Shown here: piece by piece, positions 9,188 through 57,862 of the stretch
Numbering within the stretch: position 1 is the first letter of the stretch
Layout: every line of letters starts with the position of its first letter
Assembly (NCBI GenBank): GCA_047638115.1
Contig: JBLJBB010000057.1
Location: 15,686-79,685, forward strand
Length of the DNA stretch: 64,000 nucleotides
Origin: Bacteroidales bacterium
GTDB lineage: Bacteria > Bacteroidota > Bacteroidia > Bacteroidales > WCHB1-69
Reading direction: 5' to 3'
Notes under the pieces: generated by a model
Database searches by the model: none
The model's input: only the letters and a program-made list of their open reading frames with translations
What the model was told of the DNA's origin: nothing
Made by a program: the position numbers and the translations under genes

Positions 9188-9865
9188 ATGAAACACGATT
9201 GTATCGATTGCCCTTATAAATCTCAAGCATCCAAAACATTGGATGAAAATGGTATGGCAAAGCTTACTGCTAACCATGTTGCCGTGAGTTTTGCAAAAGG
9301 GGACACCATTATCAAACAAGGAAACTACACTACAAATGTAGCTTTCTTACGAAAAGGGTTTGTTAAAATCCACATAACTGGTCCAGCTGGAGAACATATC
9401 ACCCGTTTGGCAAAAGCACCTACACATTTAGGGCTTCCAACCACTTTTGGAGTAAATATAAATCAATACTCCGTTACGGCTATTTCTGATGTGGAAGTTT
9501 GCTTTATCGATTTTAACACATTTCTCTCATTTTTACATGAAAATACAGCATTTTCATACCAGATTATTTTAGAATTGTGCAACAACGAGCTAGAATCTTA
9601 TCGGAGATGTGTCAACAGAACTCAGAAACAGACACGAGGAAATGTGGCAGATATTTTATTAGAGTTTTCTGGAGAGATCTACAATTCAGATACCTTCACG
9701 ATGCCCTTAAACCAAACTGAAATTGGCACTATGTGTGATTCTACGAGAGAGAGCATCAGTCGTATTTTATCTGAGTATGAAAAAGATGGAATCATCACCA
9801 TTCAGGGTAAAACAGTGACGATACTTAATAAAAAGTCGTTGGAGATGATCAGCAAAAACGGGTAA
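9188..9865 (+). CDS. Crp/Fnr-family transcriptional regulator
   Basis: cNMP-binding-like fold (GDTIIKQGNYTTNVAFLRKGFVKI), C-terminal HTH (TRESISRILSEYEKDGII) and an N-terminal Cys pair (CIDC). Confidence 0.8.
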   Translation: MKHDCIDCPYKSQASKTLDENGMAKLTANHVAVSFAKGDTIIKQGNYTTNVAFLRKGFVKIHITGPAGEHITRLAKAPTHLGLPTTFGVNINQYSVTAISDVEVCFIDFNTFLSFLHENTAFSYQIILELCNNELESYRRCVNRTQKQTRGNVADILLEFSGEIYNSDTFTMPLNQTEIGTMCDSTRESISRILSEYEKDGIITIQGKTVTILNKKSLEMISKNG

Positions 9866-9866
9866 T

Positions 9867-9908
9867 TCGTGTGCTCGTGTGCTCGTGTGCTCGTGTGCTC
9901 GTGTGCTC
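9867..9908. repeat. Tandem octamer (TCGTGTGC) x5.25
   Basis: Read directly. Five perfect head-to-tail copies start 1 nt after the crp/fnr stop codon. Confidence 0.95.
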
Positions 9909-9937
9909 CAGTCCCTAGTCACTTGTCATTTGTCCAT

Positions 9938-9973
9938 AAAAAAAAGCACCCTTTTGGGATGCTTTTTTTTTTT
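9938..9973. terminator. Bidirectional rho-independent terminator between convergent genes
   Basis: A8, then GCACCC-TTTT-GGGATGC hairpin (one bulge), then T11. Lies between the 3' ends at 9865(+) and 9995(-). Confidence 0.6.
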
Positions 9974-9994
9974 ATAGAAATCTTTAAAATCTAA

Positions 9995-11344
9995 TTATTT
10001 TTTAAGATTGTGTTTTTTAACAAAATCTAAAAGAACAGTTTCTAAAGTTGGAGTTCCAATTTCTTGAAGTTCATAACCAATTTTAACCACAGGTTGTTTG
10101 ATTTTCACAAAACGTGGTAGGTCAATAGGAGTACCAATAACTACTGCATCACAAGGAGTGTTAGCGATAGTATCTTCAAGGTCTTTCATTTGAGCATCTC
10201 CGTATCCCATAGCTGGAAGTAATGTTCCAATGTTTGGATATGTTACGAATGTATCTTTTAAAGTACCCACAGTGTAAGGTCTTGGGTCAATAAGTTCAGA
10301 AGCACCATATTTCATAGCAGCAACAGTACCTGCACCAATTTTCATTTCACCGTGAGTTAAAGTTGGACCATCTTCAACAACTAAAACTCTTTTACCTTTG
10401 ATTAATTCTGGTTTGTCAACAGTTAAAACTGAAGCAGCATCAATCATGATAGCAGAAGGATTAATTTTTGCTAAGTTAGCTCTAACGGTATTGATATCCA
10501 CTAAAGAAGCAGAGTCAATTTTGTTCATAACGATAACGTCAGCCATTCTAGCAACCACTTCACCTGGGTAGTAACTAACTTCAGCACCTGGGCGCAATGG
10601 GTCAGCAACACCAACATAAAGATCTGGAGTATAGAAAGAGAAGTCATTGTTTCCACCATCCCAAAGGATAATATCACAACCGTCTGGATCATTTTCAGCA
10701 GCGCGAACGATAGCTTCATAATCAACACCAGCATAAATTACATTTCTTTTTGTAACTACGTGTGGTTCATACTCTTCCATTTCTTCGATAGTACAGTTGT
10801 GTTTTTTAAGATCTTCAACAGTAGCAAATCTTTGAACTTTTTGTTTGTTCAAATCTGGATCGTAAGGCATTGGGTGGCGAATAGCAACCACTTTAAGTCC
10901 CATACCTACCAAATACTCAATAATTCTTCTAGAAGTTTGTGATTTTCCACATCCTGTACGAGTTGCACCAACTGCGATTACTGGTTTTGTAGATTTGATC
11001 ATGGTATCTTTTGGTCCCATTAAAGTAAAGTTAGCACCCGCTGCATTTACGATAGCACTGATTCCCATAACATAAGAGTAAGGTTTATCACTATAAGCGA
11101 AAACACACTCATCTACGTTAAATTTTTTGATTAAAGCAGGAAGTTCAGATTCTTTAAAGATAGGAATTCCACTTGGATAAAGATCTTCTCCTGCTAATTC
11201 TTTAGGGTAAGGTCTTCCGTCGATACCAGGAATTTGTTCAGCAGTAAAAGCAACCACGTTATAATTCGGGTTGTGTCTGAAATAGGTATTGAAGTTGTGG
11301 AAATCTCTTCCAGCTGCTCCAATAATAATAACGTTTCTTTTCAT
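9995..11344 (-). CDS. COG2403-family P-loop protein (predicted GTPase / cyclic 2,3-diphosphoglycerate synthetase-like)
   Basis: 449 aa. N-terminal Rossmann-like MKRNVIIIGAAGRDFHNF and P-loop GATRTGCGKSQTS. Family recalled from memory, not searched. Confidence 0.6.
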   Translation of the reverse strand: MKRNVIIIGAAGRDFHNFNTYFRHNPNYNVVAFTAEQIPGIDGRPYPKELAGEDLYPSGIPIFKESELPALIKKFNVDECVFAYSDKPYSYVMGISAIVNAAGANFTLMGPKDTMIKSTKPVIAVGATRTGCGKSQTSRRIIEYLVGMGLKVVAIRHPMPYDPDLNKQKVQRFATVEDLKKHNCTIEEMEEYEPHVVTKRNVIYAGVDYEAIVRAAENDPDGCDIILWDGGNNDFSFYTPDLYVGVADPLRPGAEVSYYPGEVVARMADVIVMNKIDSASLVDINTVRANLAKINPSAIMIDAASVLTVDKPELIKGKRVLVVEDGPTLTHGEMKIGAGTVAAMKYGASELIDPRPYTVGTLKDTFVTYPNIGTLLPAMGYGDAQMKDLEDTIANTPCDAVVIGTPIDLPRFVKIKQPVVKIGYELQEIGTPTLETVLLDFVKKHNLKK

Positions 11345-11399
11345 AAATTATTGATTTTAAGTTATATAAAAAATATTTGATTGTATTCTTACAAGGTCG

Positions 11400-11407
11400 C
11401 AAATATA
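11400..11407 (-). promoter_or_regulatory. Candidate -7 box for the COG2403 gene
   Basis: Minus-strand TATATTTG, 55 nt upstream of ATG at 11344. Confidence 0.4.
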
Positions 11408-11530
11408 GTAAAAATTTTTCAATTTTGCAACCAAAAAAAATCCACAATTCTGGAACTCTCAATATTTCAATAAATTAAACCATAAATCACCACAATTCAC
11501 TTCTATCTTAATAAGGTTTTAGGTTTTTAG

Positions 11531-11625
11531 ATTCATTATTCACTATTCACTATTCACTATTTTTGGGCATTCCGGCTCACTGCATTCGCCTTCGGTCTCC
11601 GGCCTGTACTCTTCGTTTCGCTGCC
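11531..11625 (+). repeat. GC-rich modular repeat, copy A (5' heptamer array plus truncated core)
   Basis: (ATTCATT/ATTCACT)x5, then GGGCATTCCGGCTCAC..CGTTTCGCTGCC. It stops at the point where copy B continues. Confidence 0.7.
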
Positions 11626-11627
11626 AA

Positions 11628-11888
11628 GTGTTTATTCATCCATATATAACTCAAAAAAATGGACATATAGAAAGCTTTTATTCAATACTTTCAAGACATT
11701 TAGATCGATATGTTTTCTGGTCTTTGGACGAGCTAAAAACAAATTTAGATCTATTCTATGAGTATTTTAATGAAAGAAGGCTCCATTCTTCCATTGCAAA
11801 CTTATCTCCTTCAATATTTTGGTCATGTTGGAACAACGGTTGGGTAGAGAGAACGGTAGATTTAAAAAAAAATGATAAACAAGTTTAA
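11628..11888 (+). pseudogene. C-terminal remnant of an integrase-core (rve) DDE transposase (IS3/IS481-like)
   Basis: ..PYITQKNGHIESFYSILSRHL..FNERRLHSSIANLSPSIFW matches the end of the rve domain, including the catalytic E region. Only 86 codons, GTG start, no N-terminal domains. Confidence 0.7.
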
Positions 11889-16649: not shown

Positions 16650-17149
16650 TTTTGTTGGTATTCGATGGGCTGGGAAGTCCAATTTAATGTTCCAACAGAT
16701 TGCAAGATTGATTATTTAGAGTATTTAAAAGAGATCTGGATTGTTTTTTCTATTGAGAACATTGTTTCAAAAATGGTTGATAAAGTATCAATTAAAAAAT
16801 ACTATTTTATAGACAATGGATTATTGAATCTATTTTTAATGGATCCAAAAACTTCATTATTGGAGAATCAAGTTGCGATATCATTGTATCGTTTATATCC
16901 AAATGATCTCTTTTTTTATAATAAAGGAATTGAAGTTGATTTTTATCTTTTTGAAAAACAAATTGCAATTGAGGTTTGTTTATAGTATAATTAACTCTGA
17001 AATATATAAACGAGAAGTTACTGCATTATTAAAACTCAAATCTCAAATTGAGATAAAAAAAAATGTTGATTATTACAAAAGAGGAAGAAAAACTAATTAC
17101 AATAGATGACCAAGAGATACAAGTGGTTCCCAGCTGGAAGTTTTTGTAG
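16650..17149 (+). pseudogene. Degraded AAA+ ATPase (COG1373, DUF4143-type) gene: internal deletion plus frameshift
   Basis: Walker-A-like GIRWAGKSNL (16659-) hits a stop. DUF4143-like KKYYFIDNGLLN..EVDFY is in ORF 16665..16985. The C-terminal ..YKREVTALLKL.. and MLIITKEEEKLITIDDQEIQVVPSWKFL are in other frames. Confidence 0.5.
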
Positions 17150-17176
17150 TTTAAACAACAATATCTGAAGGTTTAA

Positions 17177-17220
17177 CGCTTCGCTGTTGAAAGGTCTAAT
17201 CGTTTCGCTGTTGAAAGGTC
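17177..17220 (+). repeat. Two tandem copies of a 20-mer CG(C/T)TTCGCTGTTGAAAGGTC
   Basis: Read directly, with a 4-nt spacer. A third related copy is at 57458-57477. Confidence 0.85.
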
Positions 17221-17265
17221 AATAGCCATCTACTATTAGCCCTAATTAACACATTTACTAATTTA

Positions 17266-17464
17266 TTATTCATTCTTCATTATTCACTATTTTTGGGCAT
17301 TCCCCTCGCTTCGCTCGGGTCGGGCTTGTTCCGGGGTTCGCTTCGCTCCCGTGCTTCATTCCGCTGCCGCTCCATTTCGCACCGGCTTCGCCGCCCTCCA
17401 CATCCCTAATGCGTTCAAAACCTTCGGTTTTGTAGTGAATAACTAATAGTGAATAGTGAATAGT
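17266..17464 (+). repeat. GC-rich modular repeat, copy B (heptamer array / 137-nt core 17295-17431 / inverted heptamer array)
   Basis: Core is GGGCATTCCCCTCGCTTCGCTCGGGTCGGGC..GGGGTTCGCTTCGCTCCCGTGCTTC..ACCGGCTTCGCCGCCCT..ATCCCTAATGCG, ending in hairpin AAAACCTTCGGTTTT. Flanks are ATTCACT-type on the left and AGTGAAT-type on the right. Confidence 0.8.
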
Positions 17465-17467
17465 TTT

Positions 17468-17498
17468 CGCTCCGTAGGTGCGTTATATTTGTAGCAAA
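17468..17498 (+). repeat. Hairpin plus TATATTTG-box repeat, copy H1
   Basis: CGCTCCGTAGGTGCG (one mismatch in stem) followed by TTATATTTGTAGCAAA. Confidence 0.75.
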
Positions 17499-17520
17499 CG
17501 ATTACCATGACAAGATACCA

Positions 17521-17550
17521 CGCTGCAGCGCAGCGTTATATTTGTGAACA
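17521..17550 (+). repeat. Hairpin plus TATATTTG-box repeat, copy H2
   Basis: CGCTGCAGCGCAGCG (6-bp stem) followed by TTATATTTGTGAACA. Confidence 0.75.
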
Positions 17551-17574
17551 AAATATCTTTTTCTTTTTCCCTTT

Positions 17575-17791
17575 ACTTTTTGTCTTGATACAAAAAGTAA
17601 CAAAAAAATCAAGGCCACAAAAATTCCACCCGCTCAGTCTGACCGATTAACGAACGCTACCTGCGCTTCAAAAACCGCGGGTATTTTTATCCAATTTGGT
17701 TCATTTATGGTGCGGTTTTTCGAATCATCTCCCCGCAAGCGTTCGTAAATCGCTTCAGACTTTCACGCTATTCCGCCTCGTTTGTGGCCTT
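17575..17791. repeat. Composite palindromic element (9-bp hairpin 17575-17598 plus ~180-nt imperfect inverted repeat 17611-17791)
   Basis: ACTTTTTGT/ACAAAAAGT hairpin. Arms pair as AAGGCCACAAA..TTTGTGGCCTT, CAGTCTGACCGATT..AATCGCTTCAGACT, AACGAACGCT..AGCGTTCGT and AAAACCGC..GCGGTTTT. Confidence 0.7.
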
Positions 17792-17857
17792 GCCATCGCA
17801 CATTCCACTTAACTTCATTTAAAGTAATTTGTTCACAAAACTAAGGTCACTGAGTAG

Positions 17858-17960
17858 AAGCGCCCTCACGATAAATTGGAGAAACGAAGGAATAAACTGC
17901 TTCGTATCGAAGTGCCGATGCCATGAATGAAGAATGAAGAATGAAAAATGAAGAATGAAC
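17858..17960 (+). repeat. Possible 3' remnant of a fifth GC-rich repeat copy with (TGAAGAA)x5 array
   Basis: AGCGCCCTCACG resembles the 3' module GGCGCCCT..CCCTCACGC of copy D. It has a CGAAG..CTTCG hairpin, then TGAAGAA heptamers at 17924-17960. Confidence 0.35.
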
Positions 17961-17990
17961 AGCTGCAGCGCAGTGTTGTATTTGTGAACA
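17961..17990 (+). repeat. Hairpin plus box repeat, copy H3 (degenerate)
   Basis: AGCTGCAGCGCAGTG followed by TTGTATTTGTGAACA. Confidence 0.65.
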
Positions 17991-18157
17991 CTCTATTCTA
18001 ATAAAAGTGTGGAGTTTTATTATGTAAGTATAAGATATTTAGTAGTTTGAAAATTTGCACTTTCTGTAAATATATTTTATGCGTACACAAATTTTACTCC
18101 CAACACATTGCACCATTTTTATTTTTTTAAGTTCCACACTTTTATTAGAATAGTGTT
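17989..18157. mobile_element. MITE-like element (~170 bp) with ~26-bp terminal inverted repeats
   Basis: Left end is AACACTCTATTCTAATAAAAGTGTGGAG and right end is TTCCACACTTTTATTAGAATAGTGTT. 21/21 nt are perfectly complementary, plus a further 4-5 nt across one indel. AT-rich interior with no ORF. Confidence 0.65.
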
Positions 18158-18221
18158 TTTGGGTTGCTGATTCAGAAGCATTTGCAATTTAATAACTGCG
18201 GGTTACGAAACGATATTGGTT

Positions 18222-18527
18222 TCACCACTCTTCATTTTTCATTTTTTCAAACCGCTTGCGGTTTGAAAAAGCGTTAGGGATTTGAAGGGCGGCGAAGCCG
18301 GTACGAGCTGGAACGAGCGCCGCAATGAGATGGCTTTGATGATGAAAATGACTTAAGCGAAGTGCAGCGAAGTACGGGAGCGAAGCGAACCCCGGAAAAG
18401 CCCGACGGCGGTGCGTTGGGTCGTGGGTGGATAACGCCGGAACGCCCAAAATTAGTGAATAGTGAATAATAAATAGTGAATAGTGAATAATGAATAGTGA
18501 ATAATGAAGAATGAAGAATGAAGAATT
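18222..18527 (-). repeat. GC-rich modular repeat, copy C (inverted orientation; 200-nt core 18248-18447 plus long heptamer arrays)
   Basis: The reverse complement aligns with copies B and D (GGGCGTTCCGGC..CGTCGGGCTT..GGGGTTCGCTTCGCTCCCGTACTTC..GGCGCTCGTTC..ACCGGCTTCGCCGCCCT..ATCCCTAACGC..AAACCGCAAGCGGTTT). About 11 heptamers (AGTGAAT/ATGAAGA) at 18451-18527. Confidence 0.8.
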
Positions 18528-18572
18528 GACCAGAAACGAGAAAGATAATCCTTTTGACTTTTAAAAAAAAAT

Positions 18573-18610
18573 ATTAGCTTATTAGCTTATTAGCAAATTA
18601 GCTTATTAAT
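18573..18610 (+). repeat. Tandem octamer (ATTAGCTT) x4.75
   Basis: Read directly. The inverse word AATAAGCTAATAAG recurs at 54542-54555. Confidence 0.9.
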
Positions 18611-18613
18611 TTG

Positions 18614-18621
18614 TATTTTTG
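18614..18621 (+). promoter_or_regulatory. Candidate -7 box upstream of the TfoX stub
   Basis: TATTTTTG, 24 nt upstream of ATG at 18646. Confidence 0.35.
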
Positions 18622-18645
18622 TGAATTATTTAAAATACAAAAATT

Positions 18646-18762
18646 ATGGCTTCGACGCAGAAATTTGTGGAGTTTGTTTTAGAGCAAATTCATGACGCAG
18701 GGGAGATTACTTCTCGAAAGATGTTTGGAGAATATGCCATCTATGCTGATGGGAAAAAGTAA
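18646..18762 (+). pseudogene. Truncated TfoX/Sxy N-terminal-domain gene (38 codons)
   Basis: MASTQKFVEFVLEQIHDAGEITSRKMFGEYAIYADGKK* matches the first third of TfoX_N proteins (..RKMFGEY.IY.DGK), then stops. Not in the ORF track because it is too short. Confidence 0.55.
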
Positions 18763-18826
18763 AACTGAGGGTACTTCAATAACTCATAATGTCTCAATTT
18801 TCCAATTTTATGTTGAAAGATGCCTC

Positions 18827-18834
18827 TATTTTTG
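18827..18834 (+). promoter_or_regulatory. Candidate -7 box for the VOC gene
   Basis: TATTTTTG, 34 nt upstream of ATG at 18869, inside the ORF-track N-terminal extension. Confidence 0.4.
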
Positions 18835-18868
18835 CCATCTAATTCATTGTTTAACAAATAAAAATAAA

Positions 18869-19228
18869 ATGAAAAAATTTATTGAATGGGTGGAGATCCC
18901 AACCGCAGATTTTCAAAGAGGTCTTAACTTCTACAATTCCGTGTTTAAACTTTCAATGGAGCCGATCGATTCCGGTACAGAACAGATGGCGTGTTTCCCA
19001 ACCGGGGAAGGGGCAATTTTTTACAAAGAGGGGTACCTCCCTTCTGATCAGGGAAGTATGATTAGTTTTACTGTACCAGACTCGATCGAAGAGACAGCTC
19101 TTCGCGTGGAAGCTCTCGGCGGAAAAGTGTTGATCCCTAAAACTCCGATTGATGAAGAGGGGAGAGGATATTTTGCAGTTTGTATTGACTCTGAAGGAAA
19201 TAAGATCGGTTTATACGAAAAATTTTAA
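18869..19228 (+). CDS. VOC (glyoxalase/bleomycin-resistance/dioxygenase) family protein
   Basis: 119 aa from the internal ATG. Single VOC-like beta-alpha-beta module (MKKFIEWVEIPTADFQRGLNFYNSVF..GGKVLIPKTPIDEEGRGYFAVCIDSEGNKIGLYE). Confidence 0.7.
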   Translation: MKKFIEWVEIPTADFQRGLNFYNSVFKLSMEPIDSGTEQMACFPTGEGAIFYKEGYLPSDQGSMISFTVPDSIEETALRVEALGGKVLIPKTPIDEEGRGYFAVCIDSEGNKIGLYEKF

Positions 19229-19271
19229 CCTTACAAAAAGTGTCCATGAAAATGTGCACTTCCTTATTTTT

Positions 19272-20084
19272 ATGTGTATTCAAATAGCATCACCATCCGA
19301 CAAACTGAAACCCTTTGTTAAACAATATTGGGCGGTTGAGAATGTGCTGCAACAAGGGGAACAATATTCACAACGGGTGATCCCAAGCGGATTGACGGAG
19401 CTGATCATGTACCTCGATCATAAACCTACTGTTTCTACCAATAACAGATTGATGGAGGATCCTTTTTTGCTTAACGGACAACAAAACGATTTTTACGATC
19501 TTTTGATCTCCGAAAATCTATCATTATTCTCCATCTCTTTTCATCCACAAGGGTTGAGCCAATTTTTTAAGCTACCCCTTCAGGAGCTGTCCAATCAAGA
19601 TATTCCGTTGCGATATATCAATAAAGATCTCTACACTGAACTGGAAGCGCGGTTATCGCCACAGATATCGTTTCAACAAAAAATCGAGATTGTGGAGCAA
19701 TGTTTGATCAGGTTGCTGCACGACAACAAAAAAGGGTACGAATTTCAACGAATCCATAACATCATCGAAATGATTCGGGTGAAACAGGGGTTGGTTGAGA
19801 TTGAAGAGCTCTCCTCTGTGGCTTGTCTGAGTAGGAAACAGTTCGAGCGCATTTTTCTGGAATATATCGGAATCTCTCCGAAACAATATTTAAAGATTAT
19901 CCGTTTCCAATCCTCAATCTTTCTGAAATCGAAGAATGAGGATATTTCATTAACCGAATTGGCTTATGAGAGTGGCTATTATGATCAGTCACATTTCATC
20001 AATGATTATAAGAAAATGACAGGAATAACACCAAAACAGTTTTTTCTGGATTGTCAATCGATCCATTCCGATTTCTTTGAGTAA
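19272..20084 (+). CDS. AraC-family transcriptional regulator
   Basis: C-terminal double HTH (..LSRKQFERIFLEYIGISPKQYLKIIRFQ.. and ELAYESGYYDQSHFINDYKKMTGITPKQF). Internal ATG chosen to avoid overlap with the VOC gene. Confidence 0.8.
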   Translation: MCIQIASPSDKLKPFVKQYWAVENVLQQGEQYSQRVIPSGLTELIMYLDHKPTVSTNNRLMEDPFLLNGQQNDFYDLLISENLSLFSISFHPQGLSQFFKLPLQELSNQDIPLRYINKDLYTELEARLSPQISFQQKIEIVEQCLIRLLHDNKKGYEFQRIHNIIEMIRVKQGLVEIEELSSVACLSRKQFERIFLEYIGISPKQYLKIIRFQSSIFLKSKNEDISLTELAYESGYYDQSHFINDYKKMTGITPKQFFLDCQSIHSDFFE

Positions 20085-20135
20085 TTTTTTAACATTTTTT
20101 TTAGTTTGTTGCAGAAAGTGAATTTAACTTTTGAT

Positions 20136-20417: not shown

Positions 20418-21203
20418 ATGAAAAAACTAATGATAATCGTAACAGCTTTCCTATTTGTTTTTGCTGTTAGTGCTCAAAATGCGAAAACTGAAACCAAAAA
20501 AGAGGTTAAACAAGAAGTAAAAAAAGAAGTTAAAGCTGAACATAAATGCGCAGGTGATACAAAAACTGACCACAAATGTGCAGATAAATCTAAAGATGCT
20601 AAAGGTTGCTGCGACAAAAATAAAGATAAAAAAGAGTGCGCAGACAAAGGGAAAGACCACAAATGCGCTGACAAAGGAAAAGATGCTAAAGGTTGCTGCG
20701 ACAAAGGTAAAGACCATAAAGGTTGTACAGACAAAGGGAAAGATCACAAATGCTCTGACAAAGGAAAAGACCATAAAGGTTGTGCAGACAAAGGAAAAGA
20801 TCACAACTGTGCTGACAAAGGTAAAGATGGAAAATGTTGTTCTGAAGGGGAAGCTAAAAAAGGTGATTGTTGTAAAGATGGAAAAGCTTATGGACACCAT
20901 AAAGATGGCAAATGTGGACGTGATTTTGGTCAAGAACGCGCTAAAAATGCTAAAAATAAAGTAGAGAAAGAAACCGTGGTTAAAGAGGTTGCTGCTGAAG
21001 TGGATCAAGCTATTGTAACAACTAAAAACCGTACTCAAGAGGCACGTACTGCTGTTCAAGATAAATATAAGAAAAAACAGATCACTAAAGCACAATACGA
21101 AGAAAAAATTAAACGTATTGATGAGATCGAAAAAGAGGTGATTCGTATTGAAAACGAACGCAAAGCTACTGATCAGGTGATCAAAACAAAAGTTTCAAAG
21201 TAA
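20418..21203 (+). CDS. Secreted Cys/His/Lys/Asp-rich tandem-repeat protein with C-terminal coiled coil (putative metal-binding)
   Basis: Signal peptide ..FAVSAQ. Residues 42-169 carry about 10 units of the (H)K(G)C(A/S/T)DKGKD type, with 17 Cys and 9 His. The C-terminal ~90 aa are K/E-rich helix. Confidence 0.75.
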   Translation: MKKLMIIVTAFLFVFAVSAQNAKTETKKEVKQEVKKEVKAEHKCAGDTKTDHKCADKSKDAKGCCDKNKDKKECADKGKDHKCADKGKDAKGCCDKGKDHKGCTDKGKDHKCSDKGKDHKGCADKGKDHNCADKGKDGKCCSEGEAKKGDCCKDGKAYGHHKDGKCGRDFGQERAKNAKNKVEKETVVKEVAAEVDQAIVTTKNRTQEARTAVQDKYKKKQITKAQYEEKIKRIDEIEKEVIRIENERKATDQVIKTKVSK

Positions 21204-22903: not shown

Positions 22904-25900
22904 ATGACAACATTAAAATTAGGGATAGATATTGGATCCACTACCGTTAAAGTATTGATCACCGATGCAACGTTACACCCCTTATTTTCAAGATATTCCA
23001 GACACAACACCAGGGTAGAAGATACGCTGGTGTCTTTGTTGTCAGAAATTCATCAAATATTCCCGACACAACACTTTTCTATTGCCTTTACTGGCTCCGC
23101 TGGAATGGGAATTGCGGAAAAAACAGGCGCGCTCTTCATTCAGGAGATCATCGCTGCTACCGAATTGGTGAAACACGACTATCCGGAAGTGAAAACCATT
23201 ATCGACATTGGTGGGGAGGATGCCAAATTGGTGTTGCTCGATAATCTTGCCAATCCTGATATCCGGATGAATGGAAACTGTGCTGGAGGAACGGGTGCAT
23301 ACATTGATCAGATGGCTGCTCTGTTGAATGTTTCTATAGAGCAACTGAATGATTGGGCAGAAAATCACTCCCGGATCTATCCTGTGGCTTCACGATGTGG
23401 CGTGTTTGCTAAGACAGACGTGCAAAACTTAATCAGCAGGAAAATAGACCCTCAGGATATAGCTGCTTCCATCTTTGAAGCAGTGGCCAATCAAACCCTC
23501 AACACGTTAGCGCGTGGGTGTCGGTTGAATACTCAAATATTGCTGTGTGGTGGGCCCTTAACCTACATCCCTTTTCTTCGCGCTGCCTTTGCTAAAGTGC
23601 TCCATATCGACCTATCCAACTTTGTGATCCCAGATCAAGGCGCCCTTTTTACCGCTTTGGGTACCGCTTTTTCGATCCCACAAAACACTCCCCCAACTAC
23701 CATTCCAGAGTTTTTGGCAAAACTTACTCAACCTTCACCCAAACCCATGTCAGATTATCACTTGAGTCCGCTGTTTGGGAGTCAGCAAAATTTTGATACA
23801 TGGCAACAAGTAAGAAACCTGGTACCAATACCCCAAAATGGGATCTCCCAAAGTGAAAAGCTTTTCCTGGGGATCGACTCAGGATCAACCACAACCAAAA
23901 TAGTGGTATTAAATGAACATAAAGAGATGGTGTTCCATTTCTACAAACATAACAACGGAGATCCGCTCCAAACCATTACCCACGGATTACTCTCCCTTTA
24001 CGATAAGATGAATCAACTTCCTAATCTGCCTAAAATGGTGGCTTCTGCCGTGACTGGTTACGGGGAGGAGTTGATCCGCAATGGTCTGGGGATAGACTTT
24101 GGAATTGTGGAGACGGTTGCCCACACACTTGCCGCCCAGCAATTGGACCCAGAGGTTACCTTTGTGCTTGATATTGGGGGGCAAGATATGAAGGCGATCT
24201 TTATCCAGCAGGGTATCATCACCAACATCGAGATCAACGAGGCGTGCTCCTCCGGTTGTGGCACCTTCATTGAGGGGTTTGCCAACACCTTGGGCTACTC
24301 TTCAGAAGCTTTTGCACAATTGGCGATCAATGCTCAAACCCCTTACGATCTGGGCTCCCGCTGTACGGTGTTTATGAATTCCAAAGTGAAACAAGCACTC
24401 CGCGATGGTGCTTCTGTGGAGGATCTCTCCGCAGGACTCGCGTATTCGGTGATCAAGAATTGTTTGCACAAAGTGCTACGGATCGAGTCGAATGCCGATA
24501 TTGGAAACACCGTTGTGGTGCAAGGGGGAACCTTTAAAAATAGTGCCGTGTTCCGCAGTCTGGAGATCCTTTCAGGTAAAAAGGTGGTGATCTCCGATTT
24601 TCCCGAATTGATGGGGGCTTATGGCGCGGCAATTTACGCTTTTGATAAACAAAATACACTACAAAAGTCGGGGTTCGTGGGGTTTGATCATCTCCAACTG
24701 GGCCTCTCGTTTCAATCTACCTACAAAGCTTGTATGGGGTGTTCTAACCGTTGTATGATAACAAAATATCACTTTAACAACGGCAACAGCGCCTTTGCAG
24801 GGAATAAATGTGAAAAAATATTTTCTAACAGTGGAACAAAGATGATGAAAGGGGAGAACCTTTTTGACCAGAAATGGAGCTTATTTCACAATAGAAAATC
24901 GGAAAATAGAAACCATACAACGGTTGGACTACCGCTCATCCTCAACATGTACGAGAACTATCCGTTCTGGCACACTCTTTTTACCGAGAGTGGGTTCCAT
25001 GTGATCCCCTCAGATGACAGCACCCAGGCGCTCTATCAGAAAGGGATTGGCGGCGCGATGTCGGACAACATCTGTTTCCCCGCGAAGTTAGCCCACGGCC
25101 ATATCGAAAATCTGATTGAAAAACGAGTAGATCGGATCTTCTTACCGATGGTGGTGTATGAACAGAAAAAGTTCTCTAAATCTACCAACAGCTTTAATTG
25201 TCCTGTGGTGACGGGCTACCCGGAAGTGCTCAAGAGTGGCGTACTGGATCGGCTTCCCGACAACATGGTGATCGACACCCTCCCTTTTAGTTTTCAGTCG
25301 GAGAAGTTGTTACAACAGGCATGTAGGCGCTACTTAAAGAGTCTGGGTGTTCCTAACTCCCTTTTTCAGCTCGCTTTTCAGAAGGCGATTCAGGAGCAGG
25401 CAAGATATAAACGGAAAGTGATGGAAGCGAATACGCAGATCCTCGAGCGGGCGATCAGAGATCAAAAACCGATTGTGATGGTGGCGGGGCACCCTTACCA
25501 TATGGATCCCCTGATTCATCAAAAGGTGTCACAAATTCTCTCCGATCTGGGGGTGTGCGTGATCAATGAAGAGGTGGATATGAGCCAATCGGAACACTCT
25601 TTTGATCCTTTCTTTACCATCTCACAATGGGAATATACCAACAGATTACTCCAAGCAACGAAATGGATTACCGAGCAACCTTTCCCCATTGGGATGGTGC
25701 AGCTCAACTCTTTTGGTTGCGGACTCGACTCGATCATCCTGAGTGAGATCAAGCACCTTGTGAACCAAAAGCAGATCCCCTACGCCTGGGTGCGGATCGA
25801 TGAGATCGCCAGTCCCGGTTCGGTGAAGCTCAGACTGAGATCATTAGTAGAATCTATGAAAATGCGAAAACCTATTGAAAATATCAATAAATATACAATA

Positions 25901-27133
25901 GCAAATCAACAGCGAGCCATCTTTGAAGAGAAAGACAGGCATAGAACGATACTGTTTCCATGGTTTTCCGATTTTTACTCTCCGTTGGCTCCCATCCTGG
26001 CGAAACAGGTGGGGTACAACTTTGAAAACCTCCCCCCATCCGATCAGGAATCTATCGATTTGGGTTTGAAATATGCCAATAATGAGGTGTGTTATCCCGC
26101 CACTCTGGTGGTAGGAGATATTATCAAGGCGCTCCAAAGTGGCAAGTACAATCCTAACGATATTGCAATTGGGATCACCCAAACGGGGGGACAGTGTAGG
26201 GCTACCAATTACTTGTCGCTGATCAAAAGGGCAATGGCGAATGCTGGGTATGATGAGGTGCCGATCATTGGATTGGGCTCTCCCGATGCGATTTTCAACT
26301 TGCAACCCGGATTTCAGCCGAAGTGGCGCTCCATCATCCGGCCCACGTTCTCAGCGCTCCTTTTTGCCGATGCGATTTCCAAGTTATATTACGCTACGGC
26401 CTCTCGTGAAGAGACCAATGTGAACTCAAAGCGTCTGAAAGAGAAGTATATTAAGTTAGCTCAACAGGTATTGGAAAACAAAAAGCACAATCAATTGATC
26501 CCTTTATTGGAAAAGGCGGTGCTCGAGTTTAACCAGGTTCCTTTGAAATATCAAGAAGTGAAAACGGTGGGATTGGTAGGAGAGATCTATGTTAAGTTTA
26601 ATGCATACGGTCAATATTATATCATCGATTGGCTCATAGACAACCACATCGCGGTGGAGATTCCGCCGTTGATGGAGTTTATGATGCAGGCGTTTGTCAA
26701 TACCAAAGCGCAGCGCAACGACTTTATCGCCCCCAGAAATGGGTTAGATTTCATCGAGTCGCTTATGGAGTTGTATGCCAACCATTTTATCGGCAAGTTT
26801 GAGAAGGTGTTGCAGCAGTTCCGCTACTACAAGCCAACTCCCTCGATCCACCACGCGGCGTCGCTCGCCTCTGAGATCTTAAATTTGAATCATCAGTATG
26901 GGGAGGGGTGGCTGATTCCCGCTGAGATAGCCACTTTTGCGGCACATAACATCCATGATGTCGTGTGTTTGCAACCGTTTGGCTGTATAGCCAACCACAT
27001 CATTGGCAAGGGGATGGAGAAGAAAATCAAGCAACGCTATCCCCAGTTGAACCTCTTGTACCTCGACTTCGACTCCGGCATCAGTAAAGTGAATGTGCTT
27101 AATCGATTACATTTTTTACTACAGAATCAATGA
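22904..27133 (+). CDS. Fused acyl-CoA dehydratase activase-related protein (two BcrAD/BadFG ATPase modules plus CoA-enzyme-activase-associated C-terminal domains)
   Basis: Two ASKHA phosphate-1 motifs (LGIDIGSTTVK and LGIDSGSTTTK), with DIGGEDAK / DIGGQDMK. 1409 aa. The C-terminal half resembles YjiM/DUF2229-type partners. Confidence 0.8.
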   Translation: MTTLKLGIDIGSTTVKVLITDATLHPLFSRYSRHNTRVEDTLVSLLSEIHQIFPTQHFSIAFTGSAGMGIAEKTGALFIQEIIAATELVKHDYPEVKTIIDIGGEDAKLVLLDNLANPDIRMNGNCAGGTGAYIDQMAALLNVSIEQLNDWAENHSRIYPVASRCGVFAKTDVQNLISRKIDPQDIAASIFEAVANQTLNTLARGCRLNTQILLCGGPLTYIPFLRAAFAKVLHIDLSNFVIPDQGALFTALGTAFSIPQNTPPTTIPEFLAKLTQPSPKPMSDYHLSPLFGSQQNFDTWQQVRNLVPIPQNGISQSEKLFLGIDSGSTTTKIVVLNEHKEMVFHFYKHNNGDPLQTITHGLLSLYDKMNQLPNLPKMVASAVTGYGEELIRNGLGIDFGIVETVAHTLAAQQLDPEVTFVLDIGGQDMKAIFIQQGIITNIEINEACSSGCGTFIEGFANTLGYSSEAFAQLAINAQTPYDLGSRCTVFMNSKVKQALRDGASVEDLSAGLAYSVIKNCLHKVLRIESNADIGNTVVVQGGTFKNSAVFRSLEILSGKKVVISDFPELMGAYGAAIYAFDKQNTLQKSGFVGFDHLQLGLSFQSTYKACMGCSNRCMITKYHFNNGNSAFAGNKCEKIFSNSGTKMMKGENLFDQKWSLFHNRKSENRNHTTVGLPLILNMYENYPFWHTLFTESGFHVIPSDDSTQALYQKGIGGAMSDNICFPAKLAHGHIENLIEKRVDRIFLPMVVYEQKKFSKSTNSFNCPVVTGYPEVLKSGVLDRLPDNMVIDTLPFSFQSEKLLQQACRRYLKSLGVPNSLFQLAFQKAIQEQARYKRKVMEANTQILERAIRDQKPIVMVAGHPYHMDPLIHQKVSQILSDLGVCVINEEVDMSQSEHSFDPFFTISQWEYTNRLLQATKWITEQPFPIGMVQLNSFGCGLDSIILSEIKHLVNQKQIPYAWVRIDEIASPGSVKLRLRSLVESMKMRKPIENINKYTIANQQRAIFEEKDRHRTILFPWFSDFYSPLAPILAKQVGYNFENLPPSDQESIDLGLKYANNEVCYPATLVVGDIIKALQSGKYNPNDIAIGITQTGGQCRATNYLSLIKRAMANAGYDEVPIIGLGSPDAIFNLQPGFQPKWRSIIRPTFSALLFADAISKLYYATASREETNVNSKRLKEKYIKLAQQVLENKKHNQLIPLLEKAVLEFNQVPLKYQEVKTVGLVGEIYVKFNAYGQYYIIDWLIDNHIAVEIPPLMEFMMQAFVNTKAQRNDFIAPRNGLDFIESLMELYANHFIGKFEKVLQQFRYYKPTPSIHHAASLASEILNLNHQYGEGWLIPAEIATFAAHNIHDVVCLQPFGCIANHIIGKGMEKKIKQRYPQLNLLYLDFDSGISKVNVLNRLHFLLQNQ

Positions 27134-36114: not shown

Positions 36115-36311
36115 GGGCGTGCCGGCTTTTCCATCGCAAGACCCACCGCACGCCGTCGGGCTTACTACGGGGTCCGCTTCGCTGCCGTGCTTCACCTCAC
36201 TTCGCTTTGGAAAATGCACTCCATTTATTCAAAACAAAACGGCGCTCGTTCAGGTTCGCACCGCCTACGGCGCCCTACGTATCCCTCACGCACAAAACCG
36301 CAAGCGGTTTT
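36115..36311 (+). repeat. GC-rich modular repeat, copy D (197-nt core, no heptamer flanks)
   Basis: GGGCGTGCCGGC..GCACGCCGTCGGGCTT..GGGGTCCGCTTCGCTGCCGTGCTTC..[AT-rich 32 nt]..GGCGCTCGTTCAGGTTCGCACCGCCTACGGCGCCCT..ATCCCTCACGC..AAAACCGCAAGCGGTTTT. Confidence 0.8.
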
Positions 36312-36650: not shown

Positions 36651-37658
36651 TTATACAAACATTCTACATTTTTTATATCTCACTTTTCCATCCTTTACTT
36701 GAATCGATTTTTCAAGAAATACTGCAGTAAGATCTCTCTCGTGTTTGATTTGTTCAATTAACAAAAACCAATACAAATAGTTTTGTAAATATGTTGAAGA
36801 TACCCCTTTAAATCTCTCCATCCAGAACAATAGATCAAAGATCAATTTTTGAGAGTTTTCGGTGTTAAAATATTTGTTTTTCCCTTTAATCCTTTTCTGA
36901 TTCTCTAAAACATGATAACTGAATTTTTTTCTTATGGCAAACAGCTTTAAGGAAATATTTTGATCGATACATAATTTCTTTACACTTTTGAGTTTTGAGA
37001 AGAAAGTATCTCTTAAATCAAACTCACTAACTTTCCCAATTTTGATTACTTTGAAATCAATTTTATGGTTTCGATCGTTAACAACAATAACAGAAACATG
37101 CTCTTGATTTTTTTTTAATTCTTCATTATCTGATTTAATTTCTCCTTTTGCACCGATTTTTTTTGCTTTTGCTCCCTGTCCTTTTTTTGAGAATGGGAAA
37201 AGATATTCAATGATTTCAATAATTCCACTAAATTGTTTGGGAACATGTTCAGCCAGAGTAGAAATAATCTTATGTCTCCAATCAAAGGTGGTTTGAATAC
37301 TTAAAGAAAGCAATTTTGCGCATTCTTTTAAACTACTTCCAGATAACATTTCAAAAATGAAAGGTTTTAGTAAATGTTTTTTCTTTAAATATGAAATACA
37401 AGTTCCAGTGAATTCATTAAATCTTTTACTACATTTTTTGCATTTATAGTTTTGTACCCCTTTACGTTTTCCGTATAATATAAATTGCGATTTTCCACAA
37501 TGTGGACAAACTTTAATATTTTTTCGATTGATATCTTCACAAATATCAAAAAGAGGAGTTTTTAATGTAATTTTGGAATAAAGAGTATCAACTATTTTCT
37601 TTTGGACTTCAATATTTGAAGTGTTGAAAACCTGGGTAATTGGGGCTAGTTCATTCAT
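36651..37658 (-). CDS. IS1595-family (ISXO2-like) transposase with N-terminal zinc ribbon and HTH
   Basis: CPHCGKSQFILYGKRKGVQNYKCKKCSKRFNEFTG zinc ribbon, HTH SLKECAKLLSLSIQTTFDWRHKI, and C-terminal ..FWMERFKGVSSTYLQNYLYWF typical of the ISXO2-like DDE domain. IS ends not identifiable. Confidence 0.6.
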   Translation of the reverse strand: MNELAPITQVFNTSNIEVQKKIVDTLYSKITLKTPLFDICEDINRKNIKVCPHCGKSQFILYGKRKGVQNYKCKKCSKRFNEFTGTCISYLKKKHLLKPFIFEMLSGSSLKECAKLLSLSIQTTFDWRHKIISTLAEHVPKQFSGIIEIIEYLFPFSKKGQGAKAKKIGAKGEIKSDNEELKKNQEHVSVIVVNDRNHKIDFKVIKIGKVSEFDLRDTFFSKLKSVKKLCIDQNISLKLFAIRKKFSYHVLENQKRIKGKNKYFNTENSQKLIFDLLFWMERFKGVSSTYLQNYLYWFLLIEQIKHERDLTAVFLEKSIQVKDGKVRYKKCRMFV

Positions 37659-54506: not shown

Positions 54507-54527
54507 AAATTGAATTGAATTAATTTG

Positions 54528-54535
54528 CAAAAATA
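54528..54535 (-). promoter_or_regulatory. Candidate -7 box for ruvA-sprA(-ABC-F)
   Basis: Minus-strand TATTTTTG, 21 nt upstream of ATG at 54506. Confidence 0.4.
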
Positions 54536-54647
54536 CAAAATAATAAGCTAATAAGAGAATGTGATAATGAGCTAATTTAACTTAATGGCAGATATCAGAA
54601 GTTTAGAACTGATAACTTTTTAATTTTTTTTCGTAGATCTACTTTTT

Positions 54648-57404: not shown

Positions 57405-57457
57405 AGGAAAATTAGTGAATTAGAAAATGAGTTTTTGTTTAAGGTTTAAAGATTTAA

Positions 57458-57477
57458 CGCTTCGCTGTTTAAGGTTT
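57458..57477 (+). repeat. Third copy of the CGCTTCGCTGTT(G/T)AAGGT word
   Basis: CGCTTCGCTGTTTAAGGTTT, compared with the copies at 17177-17220. Confidence 0.7.
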
Positions 57478-57482
57478 AGTTC

Positions 57483-57512: not shown

Positions 57513-57676
57513 TTGATAAGAGTTAACCACAGAGTTTCACAGAGTTATAAAAGAGTATCACAGAGGTTGCAGATGAATAGCCGTGGGTTGCGAAACTACC
57601 TGCGGATGAATGATACCCCACAACACTCTACTACCTCGAAGAGGTTGAAGAAAAGAATGAAAAATAAAAAATGAAT

Positions 57677-57707
57677 CGCTCCGTAGGAGCGTTATATTTG
57701 TAGCAAA
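57677..57707 (+). repeat. Hairpin plus TATATTTG-box repeat, copy H4
   Basis: CGCTCCGTAGGAGCG (perfect 6-bp stem) followed by TTATATTTGTAGCAAA. Nearly identical to H1 at 17468. Confidence 0.8.
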
Positions 57708-57770
57708 TGAACTCCTAATTCTTTTTTCTGATTTTTGTATTTTTTTAAATAATTTGTATTGTTTTTTTAC

Positions 57771-57820: not shown

Positions 57821-57862
<42 letters not shown>

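Follow-up and report, generated by a model that had tools for sequence, protein, structure and literature searches.

Two short GC-rich repeats, B and C, lie tail-to-tail around about 750 bp of non-coding DNA in a 64-kb stretch of a Bacteroidales genome (contig JBLJBB010000057.1; the whole stretch is called the window below), and a third, D, stands elsewhere in it. What kind of element are they? The initial annotation, made from the sequence alone, described a modular family of four copies (A to D) bracketed by tandem heptamers that would act as terminal inverted repeats (TIRs), and named a non-autonomous mobile element or a structured non-coding RNA as candidates. Its observations prove largely right, both candidates remain live, and its heptamer-TIR mechanism does not hold. 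Here we describe a closed multi-helix fold that is maintained by compensatory change in copies from three phyla. The explanation that we favour, and to which we give about an even chance, is that the cores form an unnamed, dispersed, non-coding and non-autonomous structured repeat family, a mosaic component comparable to repetitive extragenic palindromes (REPs), bacterial interspersed mosaic elements (BIMEs) and Neisseria intergenic mosaic elements (NIMEs).

A covarying fold in the GC-rich cores

A covariance model, R1, was built from 36 copies collected by hand and run with filters off over the full window, where it found exactly three full copies, B, C and D (109, 179 and 175 bits), and one fragment, A (Table 1). 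The three cores are 60–66% GC in a window of 34% GC, confirming the contrast first noticed. A possible 3' remnant that had been placed at 17858–17960 was not found by R1, and only its heptamer array recurs elsewhere. Homologues were collected by scanning species-representative genomes with the 20-mer GGGGTYCGCTTCGCTSCCGT, which matched at least 97 stretches; the homologous loci and contigs kept for comparison carry L-numbers and amount to ~1.28 Mb of related sequence. Among the matches listed, R1 accepts 89 elements at E < 1e-3 and rejects chance 20-mer matches within genes of high-GC taxa (Nocardia, Streptomyces, Microbacterium). More diverged members surely exist beyond the 20-mer matches, as the element at L002:5842 and the sister family described below illustrate.

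The core adopts a closed fold, P1 to P6, whose helices were derived from pairs of columns that change on both sides, with rare variants as a check; what is conserved is this fold and not a reading frame. P1 joins both ends of the element (GCGTT/AACGC, GCATT/AATGC, GCGTG/CACGC, GCGGC/GCCGC or GCACC/GGTGC) and is paired in 36 of 36 copies, with 21 double changes and U-A, G-C, C-G and A-U pairs all seen. This 5-bp stem, varying in sequence by covariation, is the sole terminal pairing common to all copies. The compensatory G/T with C/A change reported at the 5' end is genuine, but it had been assigned to the wrong stem: the internal GCACGCC is constant whether the 5' end reads GCGTG, GCGTT or GCATT, and the partner is the 3'-terminal MACGC of P1. 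P2 is a CGGC/GCCG stem that closes a C-rich loop of 25 nt in some copies and a short hairpin, GCTTCGC, in others. P3a pairs the GGG of GTCGGGCT with the CCC of ATCCCT and covaries as GGG/CCC, AGG/CCU (AGG/CCT in DNA) and GCG/CGC; because of the latter two variants the partner must be this CCC, which ruled out a structure obtained from RNAalifold only, in which GGGC pairs with GCCC. Three further pairs make up P3b (variants TGT/ACA, TAC/GTA, TTT/AAA and TGC/GCA). P5, of variable length, consists of GTRC...GYAC, then GCTG/CAGC or ACCG/CGGT, then GC/GC, and P6 is a small hairpin preceding GCCCT. The P4 hairpin (GGG/CCC around an invariant loop) shows zero covariation, has nine mismatches at one pair and is indistinguishable from an alternative GGGG/CCCU pairing, and its assignment is uncertain.

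In the 36 hand-collected copies, 96.6% of the cells are paired, compared with 38–49% when partners are slid, and double changes occur at 15 pairs, the observed value being reached by none of 500 shuffles. The 89 copies aligned with R1, an alignment fitted to the model and hence biased towards the structure, are 95.3% paired, with double changes at 26 of 30 pairs and 360 compensatory cells. In P6, two near-identical paralogues of a single genome (L013 and L026) are set apart by a double change, from A-T to G-C. The two alignments strongly confirm a conserved structure with compensatory change. Folded with their flanks, B and C give z-scores of -3.2 and -4.1; D folded alone gives -0.34, no better than shuffled sequence.

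The minimal unit of ~84 nt comprises P1, P3a/P3b, a junction with GGGGTYCGCTTCGCTSCCGT (a stretch whose near-invariance is partly by construction, the 20-mer being the search pattern), P5 and ACC..GCCCT. The smallest members (84–88 nt; L008, L010 and L074) lack P2 and P6, whereas long forms of 160–180 nt add P2 with its C-rich loop, P6 and a long P5 with a subfamily-specific AT-rich tip. The shared 5' and 3' modules first described are real in the compared copies. The ~31-nt AT-rich segment that distinguishes C and D from B had been read as a swappable central module, completely unrelated between copies; a variable part does exist, but it is the apical tip of the single hairpin P5, and within-genome subfamilies share near-identical P5 tips among which P1, P2 and P6 types have been recombined. 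The tip is missing in B and in the short forms of other phyla, where a plain hairpin stands instead, for example CTGCCAAATGGCAG in Leptospira.

Each core in the window is followed by a hairpin, as first noted (Table 1). A hairpin of this kind, with an A-run, CC-loop-GG and a T-run (A3–6, T3–8), is present 1–6 nt past the core in 28 of the 41 long forms. Its runs are nearly equal (A-run mean 4.4, T-run mean 5.0), making it symmetric, and its stems are weak, with 2–4 G-C pairs that a generic hairpin scan did not list. By its sequence it resembles an intrinsic bidirectional terminator, which would be its putative function.

Copy A, at 8.8 bits, belongs not to the main family, as claimed, but to a sister family ('family 2'), of which it is a truncated member. 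Its GGGCATTCCGGC start and P2 are those of the main family, and the sister-family body (GTCGGTCTCCGGC... / GTCGGTCTCCGGCC...) follows; it aligns to the family-2 copies L045:860, L022:4635, L016:3148, L026:2682 and L044:144 (OW818690.1), and ends after ~75 nt where an rve_3 integrase-core fragment (Pfam; 11628–11885) starts. Sister-family ends match those of the main family (5' GGGCRTTCC plus P2, 3' CCCTAAYGC), and P1 covaries there too; the body of ~120 nt is different and includes a GTAAAAGGAGC...GCTCTTTTAC hairpin. Its copies often lie tail-to-tail with a main-family copy.

Distribution, neighbours and turnover of the copies

Carriers in Bacteroidota, among the matches listed, include Bacteroidales metagenome-assembled genomes (MAGs), the 3.47-Mb 'metagenome chromosome' OW818690.1, Hymenobacter, Cyclobacteriaceae, Chitinophagales, Lentimicrobiaceae and Thermaurantimonas; those outside it, in the same list, are five Planctomycetota MAGs and, in Spirochaetota, Leptospira isolates and Spirochaetaceae MAGs. 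OW818690.1 carries at least 24 copies spread over 0.05–3.46 Mb, with strands in the order + + - - + - + - - - - - - + - + - + - + + - - -. The inverted arrangement of B and C is real, and tail-to-tail pairs like it were found at L002, L026, L045, L059, L060 and L085.

The neighbours of the copies are ordinary genes, encoding a P-type ATPase, MutS, ParC/GyrA, aminotransferases and type IX secretion system (T9SS) proteins. All-against-all BLAST together with a Pfam scan of the flanking open reading frames (ORFs) revealed no recurrent neighbour gene family, nor did a transposase or reverse transcriptase appear among these ORFs. Y1_Tnp is not among the 25 most frequent of the 85 Pfam families matched by 85 neighbouring ORFs (~1.3 Mb around copies), and no gene for a REP-associated tyrosine transposase (RAYT) was seen near any copy in the same 25 families. 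Nor was an autonomous or long version found, as the matched 5' and 3' end motifs in 1.28 Mb all lie 107–181 nt apart, apparent exceptions being cut-off or chance pairs.

Copies occupy intergenic DNA and favour the space between convergent genes. Of 26 long forms for which a gene could be called on either side, 12 lie between convergent, 11 between co-directional and 3 between divergent genes. The upstream gene has the orientation of the element in 24 of 33 copies (p = 0.0135), a bias that is mostly a by-product of convergent placement, because between convergent genes the element and its 'upstream' gene always point the same way; where the genes are co-directional, seven copies are sense and four antisense. 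We therefore rejected the 24:9 bias as evidence for an RNA.

Relatives differ in which copies they have. D is absent from 53 loci (524 kb) that have the same PRK-family kinase gene (L099–L101, 81–83% amino acid identity; the partial L145, 72%; and 49 more distant homologues), with no copy within 6 kb. The OW818690.1 orthologue (L055) has no upstream copy but carries one downstream, at a distance of 215 nt, on a side that is free of copies in the window. Hymenobacter differs in having one copy per species at a single syntenic locus (eight species: L004, L020, L033, L048, L063, L066, L091 and L096), next to Peptidase_M15_4, holin-like, YspA-SLOG (DprA-like) and DUF3846 genes. An AT-rich promoter-like stretch precedes the Hymenobacter copy and ~700 nt without a clear ORF follow it, a region in which tblastx was too noisy to call coding or not; the setting looks phage-, conjugative- or mobile-element-like.

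Arrays, interior and other features of the window

As the initial annotation stated, A, B and C do lie between heptamer arrays, those of one side being complementary to those of the other; as TIRs that pair into a long stem the arrays fail, being absent in D and many other copies. D and about one third of the other copies have no arrays, further copies have unrelated arrays on their two sides, and clearly complementary flanks occur in only ~8 of 36 copies. Across these 36, pairing of a copy's own 5' and 3' flanks (-25.8 kcal/mol) barely beats that of mismatched flank pairs (-23.0 kcal/mol), and flank pairing was rejected as a family feature. In the sister-strain contigs L165 and L166, the array 5' of B is 13 nt longer with a different unit mix and the arrays 5' of C are 36–44 nt shorter, while cores B and C are 99.2% and 99.4% identical. 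Strains that share identical cores thus differ in how long their arrays are and in array type; the arrays are interchangeable modules that change fast and independently, and do not form the ends of the element. The 43 nt up to GGGCATTCC before A are 91% identical to those before B. The non-coding block from B to C (17295–18447, 1.15 kb) is 99–100% identical in three strains and its flanking genes 87–99%, which suggests a recent sweep, transfer or conversion.

The arrays draw on a vocabulary of tandem 7–14-mers found near and far from copies, including ATTCACT, TATTAGCT, TGAGCACA, GTCTGTAGTCC, GGGTTTTAG, CCCTTTCCCCTT, CTGATAG, GTTCGACGTTAAAC and others. Such units occur at 18572–18608 in the window (with an inverted relative at 54515–54576), in L055, in L099–L101 and at many OW818690.1 loci. 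The tfoX promoter has (TATTAGCT)n in the window and (TGAGCACA)n in L165 and L166, and the orthologous kinase-gene promoters of relatives each have a different array. A Logan contig identical to window positions 9879–11560 (L098) stops exactly in the heptamer array before copy A, from which we conclude that heptamer arrays break assemblies.

The interior between B and C had been called a 750-bp repeat nest, a description that was not borne out: within the 1.28 Mb of related loci, nothing in positions 17500–18220 is matched except a single heptamer array. The interior contains a ~180-nt near-perfect hairpin (17610–17790, -63.7 kcal/mol, z = -5.7), with no relative in the same 1.28 Mb and no credible Rfam match, and an inverted repeat (17987–18159) whose 27-nt arms (17987–18013/18133–18159) are 93% complementary around 119 AT-rich nt. 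A small module seen here, usually just past a heptamer array, has TTATATTTGT(A/G) after a GC hairpin, which reads GCTCCGTAGGAGC or GCTGCAGCGCAGC; the copies at 17467–17501 and 57676–57710 are 94% identical, and variants lie at 17520–17550 and 17961–17990. The TAnnTTTG inside it we take to be the Bacteroidetes -7 promoter box. A tandem 24-mer, AAGGTCTAACGCTTCGCTGTTGA (2.3 copies), occurs at 17168–17220 and 57440–57480 and holds the GCTTCGC motif as in the cores; units related to it adjoin copies in L003, L043 and L055.

Table 1 Features of the repeat family and its surroundings (window coordinates unless an L-number is given)
Feature	Position	Strand	Form and parts	Basis
Core copy B	17295–17412	+	Short form, 118 nt; P1 17297–17301/17408–17412 (GCATT/AATGC); short P2 hairpin with GCTTCGC; P3a 17322–17324/17404–17406; P3b 17327–17329/17400–17402; conserved GGGGTTCGCTTCGCTCCCGT; short P5; P6 ~17384–17392	cmsearch, 109.1 bits, E = 5e-27
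Core copy C	18271–18447	-	Long form, 177 nt; P1 18441–18445/18271–18275 (GCGTT/AACGC); P2 18436–18439/18406–18409, C-rich loop; P3a/P3b present; P5 18372–18375/18301–18304 plus inner segments, ~31-nt AT-rich tip; P6 18291–18299	cmsearch, 179.3 bits, E = 2e-45
Core copy D	36115–36291	+	Long form, 177 nt, without heptamer flanks; P1 36117–36121/36287–36291 (GCGTG/CACGC); P2 36123–36126/36152–36155; P3a 36158–36160/36283–36285; P3b 36163–36165/36279–36281 (TAC/GTA); P5 36187–36190/36258–36261; P6 36263–36271	cmsearch, 174.9 bits
Copy A	11565–~11626	+	Truncated 5' fragment of sister family	R1, 8.8 bits
3' hairpin of B	17417–17431	.	AAAACC-TTC-GGTTTT (A-run, short GC stem, TNC loop, T-run)	Read from sequence
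3' hairpin of C	18248–18265		CAAACCGCAAGCGGTTTG on element strand	
3' hairpin of D	36294–36311		AAAACCGCAAGCGGTTTT	
Array 5' of A	11531–11564	+	(ATTCACT)4.4 and T-run	
Array 5' of B	17261–17294	+	(ATTCATT/ATTCACT)n and T-run	Tandem Repeats Finder (TRF)
Array 3' of B	17433–17464	+	(TAGTGAA)n, complementary to 5' array	TRF, fold
Arrays 5' of C	18448–18527	-	(ATTCACT/ATTCTTC)n	TRF, strain alignment
Run 3' of C	18222–18247	-	Short, (AAATGAA)-like; pairs with part of 5' array	Fold; TRF 18231–18246
Interior between B and C	17465–18221		Outside family	
Interior modules	17467–17501, 17520–17550, 17961–17990		Hairpin and TTATATTTGT	
Interior heptamer array	17925–17959			
Sister-family copies	L022:4635–4814, L045:860–1036, L026:2682–2863, L016:3148–3328, L044:144–~330			

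Other parts of the window also merit mention. The tfoX_N gene (18646–18759) is cut after 38 codons and is intact (110 aa) in L165/L166; the next 1.36 kb (18757–20117), with a glyoxalase-fold gene and an AraC-family gene, are missing from L165, which resumes at window position 20118. A secreted-looking 261-aa protein (20418–21203, +) is rich in Cys/Lys/Asp repeats (KCADKGKDH; DNA periods of 30, 57 and 87 nt) and has no Pfam match. Adjoining D, a 335-aa ORF (36651–37658, -) without a Pfam match has CxxC pairs close to the N-terminus and may resemble ISXO2/IS1595-type transposases. Two perfect tracts, (TCGTGTGC)5.2 at 9867–9908, over the last codons and stop of a 225-aa ORF (9188–9865) and on into the spacer, and the intergenic (ATCT)10.5 at 57821–57862, are possible slippage-prone sites. 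A ~3-kb stretch (24000–26900) reaches 55–61% GC in 80-nt windows against the 34% background and has no R1 match. The window's proteins, which include a T9SS-type giant protein, and its nearest relatives, Bacteroidales/Bacteroidetes MAGs, assign it to an uncultured lineage of Bacteroidota.

Strand, relatives and rival explanations

The covariation demonstrates a folded single strand, which may be DNA or RNA. Among 2176 cells, G-U pairs (20) are no commoner than A-C (22). The P6 loops read C[TNC]G in 37 of the 41 copies scored, and short P2, the invariant stretch and a common TNC-loop form of the 3' hairpin have loops of the same kind; on the other strand these triloops read C[GNA]G. GCTTCGC recurs in P2, in the invariant stretch and in P6, and its opposite strand is GCGAAGC; the window holds nine GCTTCGC/GCGAAGC against ~2 expected, eight of them inside repeat modules. 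DNA mini-hairpins of the GCGNAGC and CCGAAGG types are extraordinarily stable and occur at the complementary-strand origin of phage G4 and in ssiA of RSF1010 (PMC13037366, a 2026 review). By sequence alone, the complementary strand of the core resembles such single-strand initiation (ssi) signals (G4 oric, ssiA): it has GCGAAGC once in D and two or three times in B and C, it carries CCGNAGG mini-hairpins, and its P6 and 3' hairpin have C[GNA]G triloops. Known ssi-type signals are single-copy parts of phage and plasmid origins, and priming by the present family would be a putative function. We lean slightly towards DNA rather than sense RNA as the functional strand, because G-U pairs are about as frequent as A-C, orientation is unbiased and the GNA mini-hairpin motifs lie on the other strand.

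Several known systems share parts of this architecture. Integron attC sites are inverted core sites (5' RYYYAAC ... GTTRRRY 3') in cassette arrays; this identity was rejected, the ends here having the opposite order (5' GCGTT ... AACGC 3') and covarying, and the copies being dispersed beside housekeeping genes. The BOX element of Streptococcus pneumoniae (boxA-boxB(n)-boxC) has a conserved-variable-conserved layout, a predicted stable fold, intergenic location and no transposase. The modular layout is alike, but the variable part is a hairpin tip here and a repeated module in BOX, which to our knowledge is confined to streptococci and for which we know of no report of multi-phylum covariation. 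NIME/dRS3 units of Neisseria are intergenic mosaics of short repeat units with hairpin-forming repeats near gene ends, and Correia elements are bounded by terminal inverted repeats of 26 bp and duplicate a TA target; neither of these Correia features was seen here. The NIME likeness lies in intergenic mosaics built from a vocabulary of repeat units, the sequences being unrelated and NIMEs having nothing like the cross-phylum core. Neisseria mosaic regions are also mentioned in PMC3733652.

REPs are single 20–40-nt stem-loops tagged GTAG or CGTC (PMC3733652), whereas the present core has 84–180 nt, six helices, a GGGC start and no GTAG/CGTC foot. The likeness to REPs and BIMEs lies in copies that are high in number, extragenic, conserved in structure and often between convergent genes, in inverted (tail-to-tail) pairs and mosaics with other short motifs, and in the absence of genes. 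The 'atypical' REPs of RAYT subclass 2.6 (Bacteroidetes) are 20–30-nt hairpins, bar one of 122 nt, and none has motifs of this family (PMC6006769 supplement); identity with a catalogued REP/RAYT system was rejected, the sequences being unrelated to the repeats of PMC3733652 and PMC6006769. One MITE (a transposable element of the miniature inverted-repeat type) of Porphyromonas gingivalis likewise combines a Bacteroidota repeat with short tandem repeats; its minisatellite is reported to lie inside an element bounded by inverted repeats (PMC4596501), as opposed to the dispensable arrays outside the core here. The present copies share no terminal inverted repeat beyond the variable 5-bp P1, and heptamer flanks are not general. 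The family is unnamed and undescribed, being found neither in Rfam nor in the REP and MITE literature searched, and the initial annotation, too, could assign it to no named element; four core 15-mers were absent from a full-text literature search, and keyword searches brought up general papers on REPs, MITEs and ncRNA discovery only. Its fold is far more elaborate and better conserved than those of REP/BIME, NIME or BOX.

The repeat-family explanation is carried by what was observed directly, namely the covarying fold, high copy number, dispersal, lack of a recurrent neighbour family, presence and absence among relatives, and exchange of modules. In the proposed mechanism, the fold would be a substrate that some trans-acting factor sees single-stranded; copies would multiply or reshuffle through that factor, through recombination between copies, or both, and would persist where they are harmless or where they help termination. 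The element may thus be one component of a mosaic intergenic repeat system, often set among interchangeable tandem-repeat modules. Several points weigh against this explanation. Closed junctions of several helices whose joining strands are conserved occur more typically in functional RNAs than in DNA repeats, and the Hymenobacter copy, ~81–97% conserved at the nucleotide level against 65–80% for its flanks, looks like a functional gene or signal and not a parasite. No target-site duplication was seen by eye in 41 flank pairs, whose boundaries are undefined for want of a clean empty site, and the upstream regions of the kinase-gene relatives are not syntenic and provide none for D. No terminal inverted repeat and no candidate transposase was seen, and any mechanism of mobility is conjectural. 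The 24 copies listed for OW818690.1 show no strand switch by replication arm, a weak test since origin and terminus were not located and further copies may exist; for this reason a lagging-strand single-stranded DNA (ssDNA) transposon of the IS200/IS605 or REP type is disfavoured. The biases of the search pattern and of the fitted alignment, given above, count on the same side.

A tentative alternative, clearly less probable, is a structured RNA transcribed with the upstream gene or alone, acting as an exonuclease block ahead of the terminator in the 3' untranslated region, as a small RNA family whose variable P5 tip or C-rich P2 loop may contact targets or protein, or as a new self-cleaving ribozyme whose product would begin at the sharply defined GGGC. 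A terminal stem that closes six covarying helices, joined by strands that are nearly invariant, is the usual signature of functional RNA, and the sharp 5' boundary directly after a T-run, the terminator-like hairpin past the 3' end and the Hymenobacter copy kept at one locus above flank level fit it. Small ribozymes, moreover, are also multi-copy and have no fixed neighbour genes. The co-orientation of upstream genes would have added to this, were it not mostly a product of convergent placement; further, G-U is no better tolerated than A-C, the loops on the sense strand are C[UNC]G triloops instead of in-register UNCG or GNRA tetraloops, which are stable; the two runs of the 3' hairpin are alike, shuffled sequence folds as well as D by itself, and no Rfam ribozyme or riboswitch matches. 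An ssDNA signal (ssi- or Frpo-type priming or promoter) that came from a conjugative or phage-like element and was later amplified in some Bacteroidales appears improbable. It would account for the mini-hairpins of the complementary strand, the Watson-Crick-only covariation and the mobile-element context of the single Hymenobacter copy in a long non-coding stretch, but a search of 2.9 million viral contigs found the 20-mer in none, nothing similar to C turned up among plasmid records, the mini-hairpin match is one of sequence, and a priming use is not obvious for tens of chromosomal copies beside housekeeping genes.

A classical MITE with heptamer-array TIRs, in which a composite element of ~1.2 kb would be bounded by B and C, is very unlikely. 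The complementary flanks of B and C, their block being more uniform between strains than the flanking genes, as if moved or swept as a unit, and the tail-to-tail pairs elsewhere speak for it; the array-free or mismatched flanks of many copies, own-flank pairing no better than mismatched, arrays that change between strains while cores do not and that also occur far from cores, and the lack of a visible target duplication speak against it. Least credible of all, to the point that we set it aside, is a decayed protein-coding gene or a diverged known RNA family; both were looked for and neither was found. A 75-codon ORF (18222–18449, -) does run through C, but it is spurious, GC-rich sequence without stop codons, and among 5.8 billion proteins it falls in a single cluster from the same locus in sister strains; element lengths differ by 1–2 nt, indels do not come in multiples of three, and the paired columns covary in the Watson-Crick manner. 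Rfam 15 gave no match in the window at gathering thresholds and, at E ≤ 10 over 17100–18650, only noise (miRNA and snoRNA models), the best at 29 bits against a gathering score of 102.

There is a small chance that the ~84-nt core (P1, P3a/b, GGGGUYCGCUUCGCUSCCGU, P5 and ACC..GCCCU) is a new class of functional nucleic acid across Bacteroidota, Planctomycetota and Spirochaetota, as RNA or as an ssDNA signal. If so, it could be a self-cleaving ribozyme, a protein-recruiting RNA or an ssDNA signal driving its own spread by an undescribed mechanism, and the Bacteroidales copies would be a lineage-specific burst. The unusually clear covariation signal and the 84-nt minimal core make the family directly testable. 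For annotation, the family brings a spurious ORF through C. If it is as widespread as the scan suggests, it would rank with the commoner structured elements of Bacteroidota that lack annotation, and it has relatives in two further phyla. The family and the tandem modules together mark intergenic DNA whose turnover is much faster than that of the surrounding genes, which bears on how promoters and terminators evolve in these genomes.

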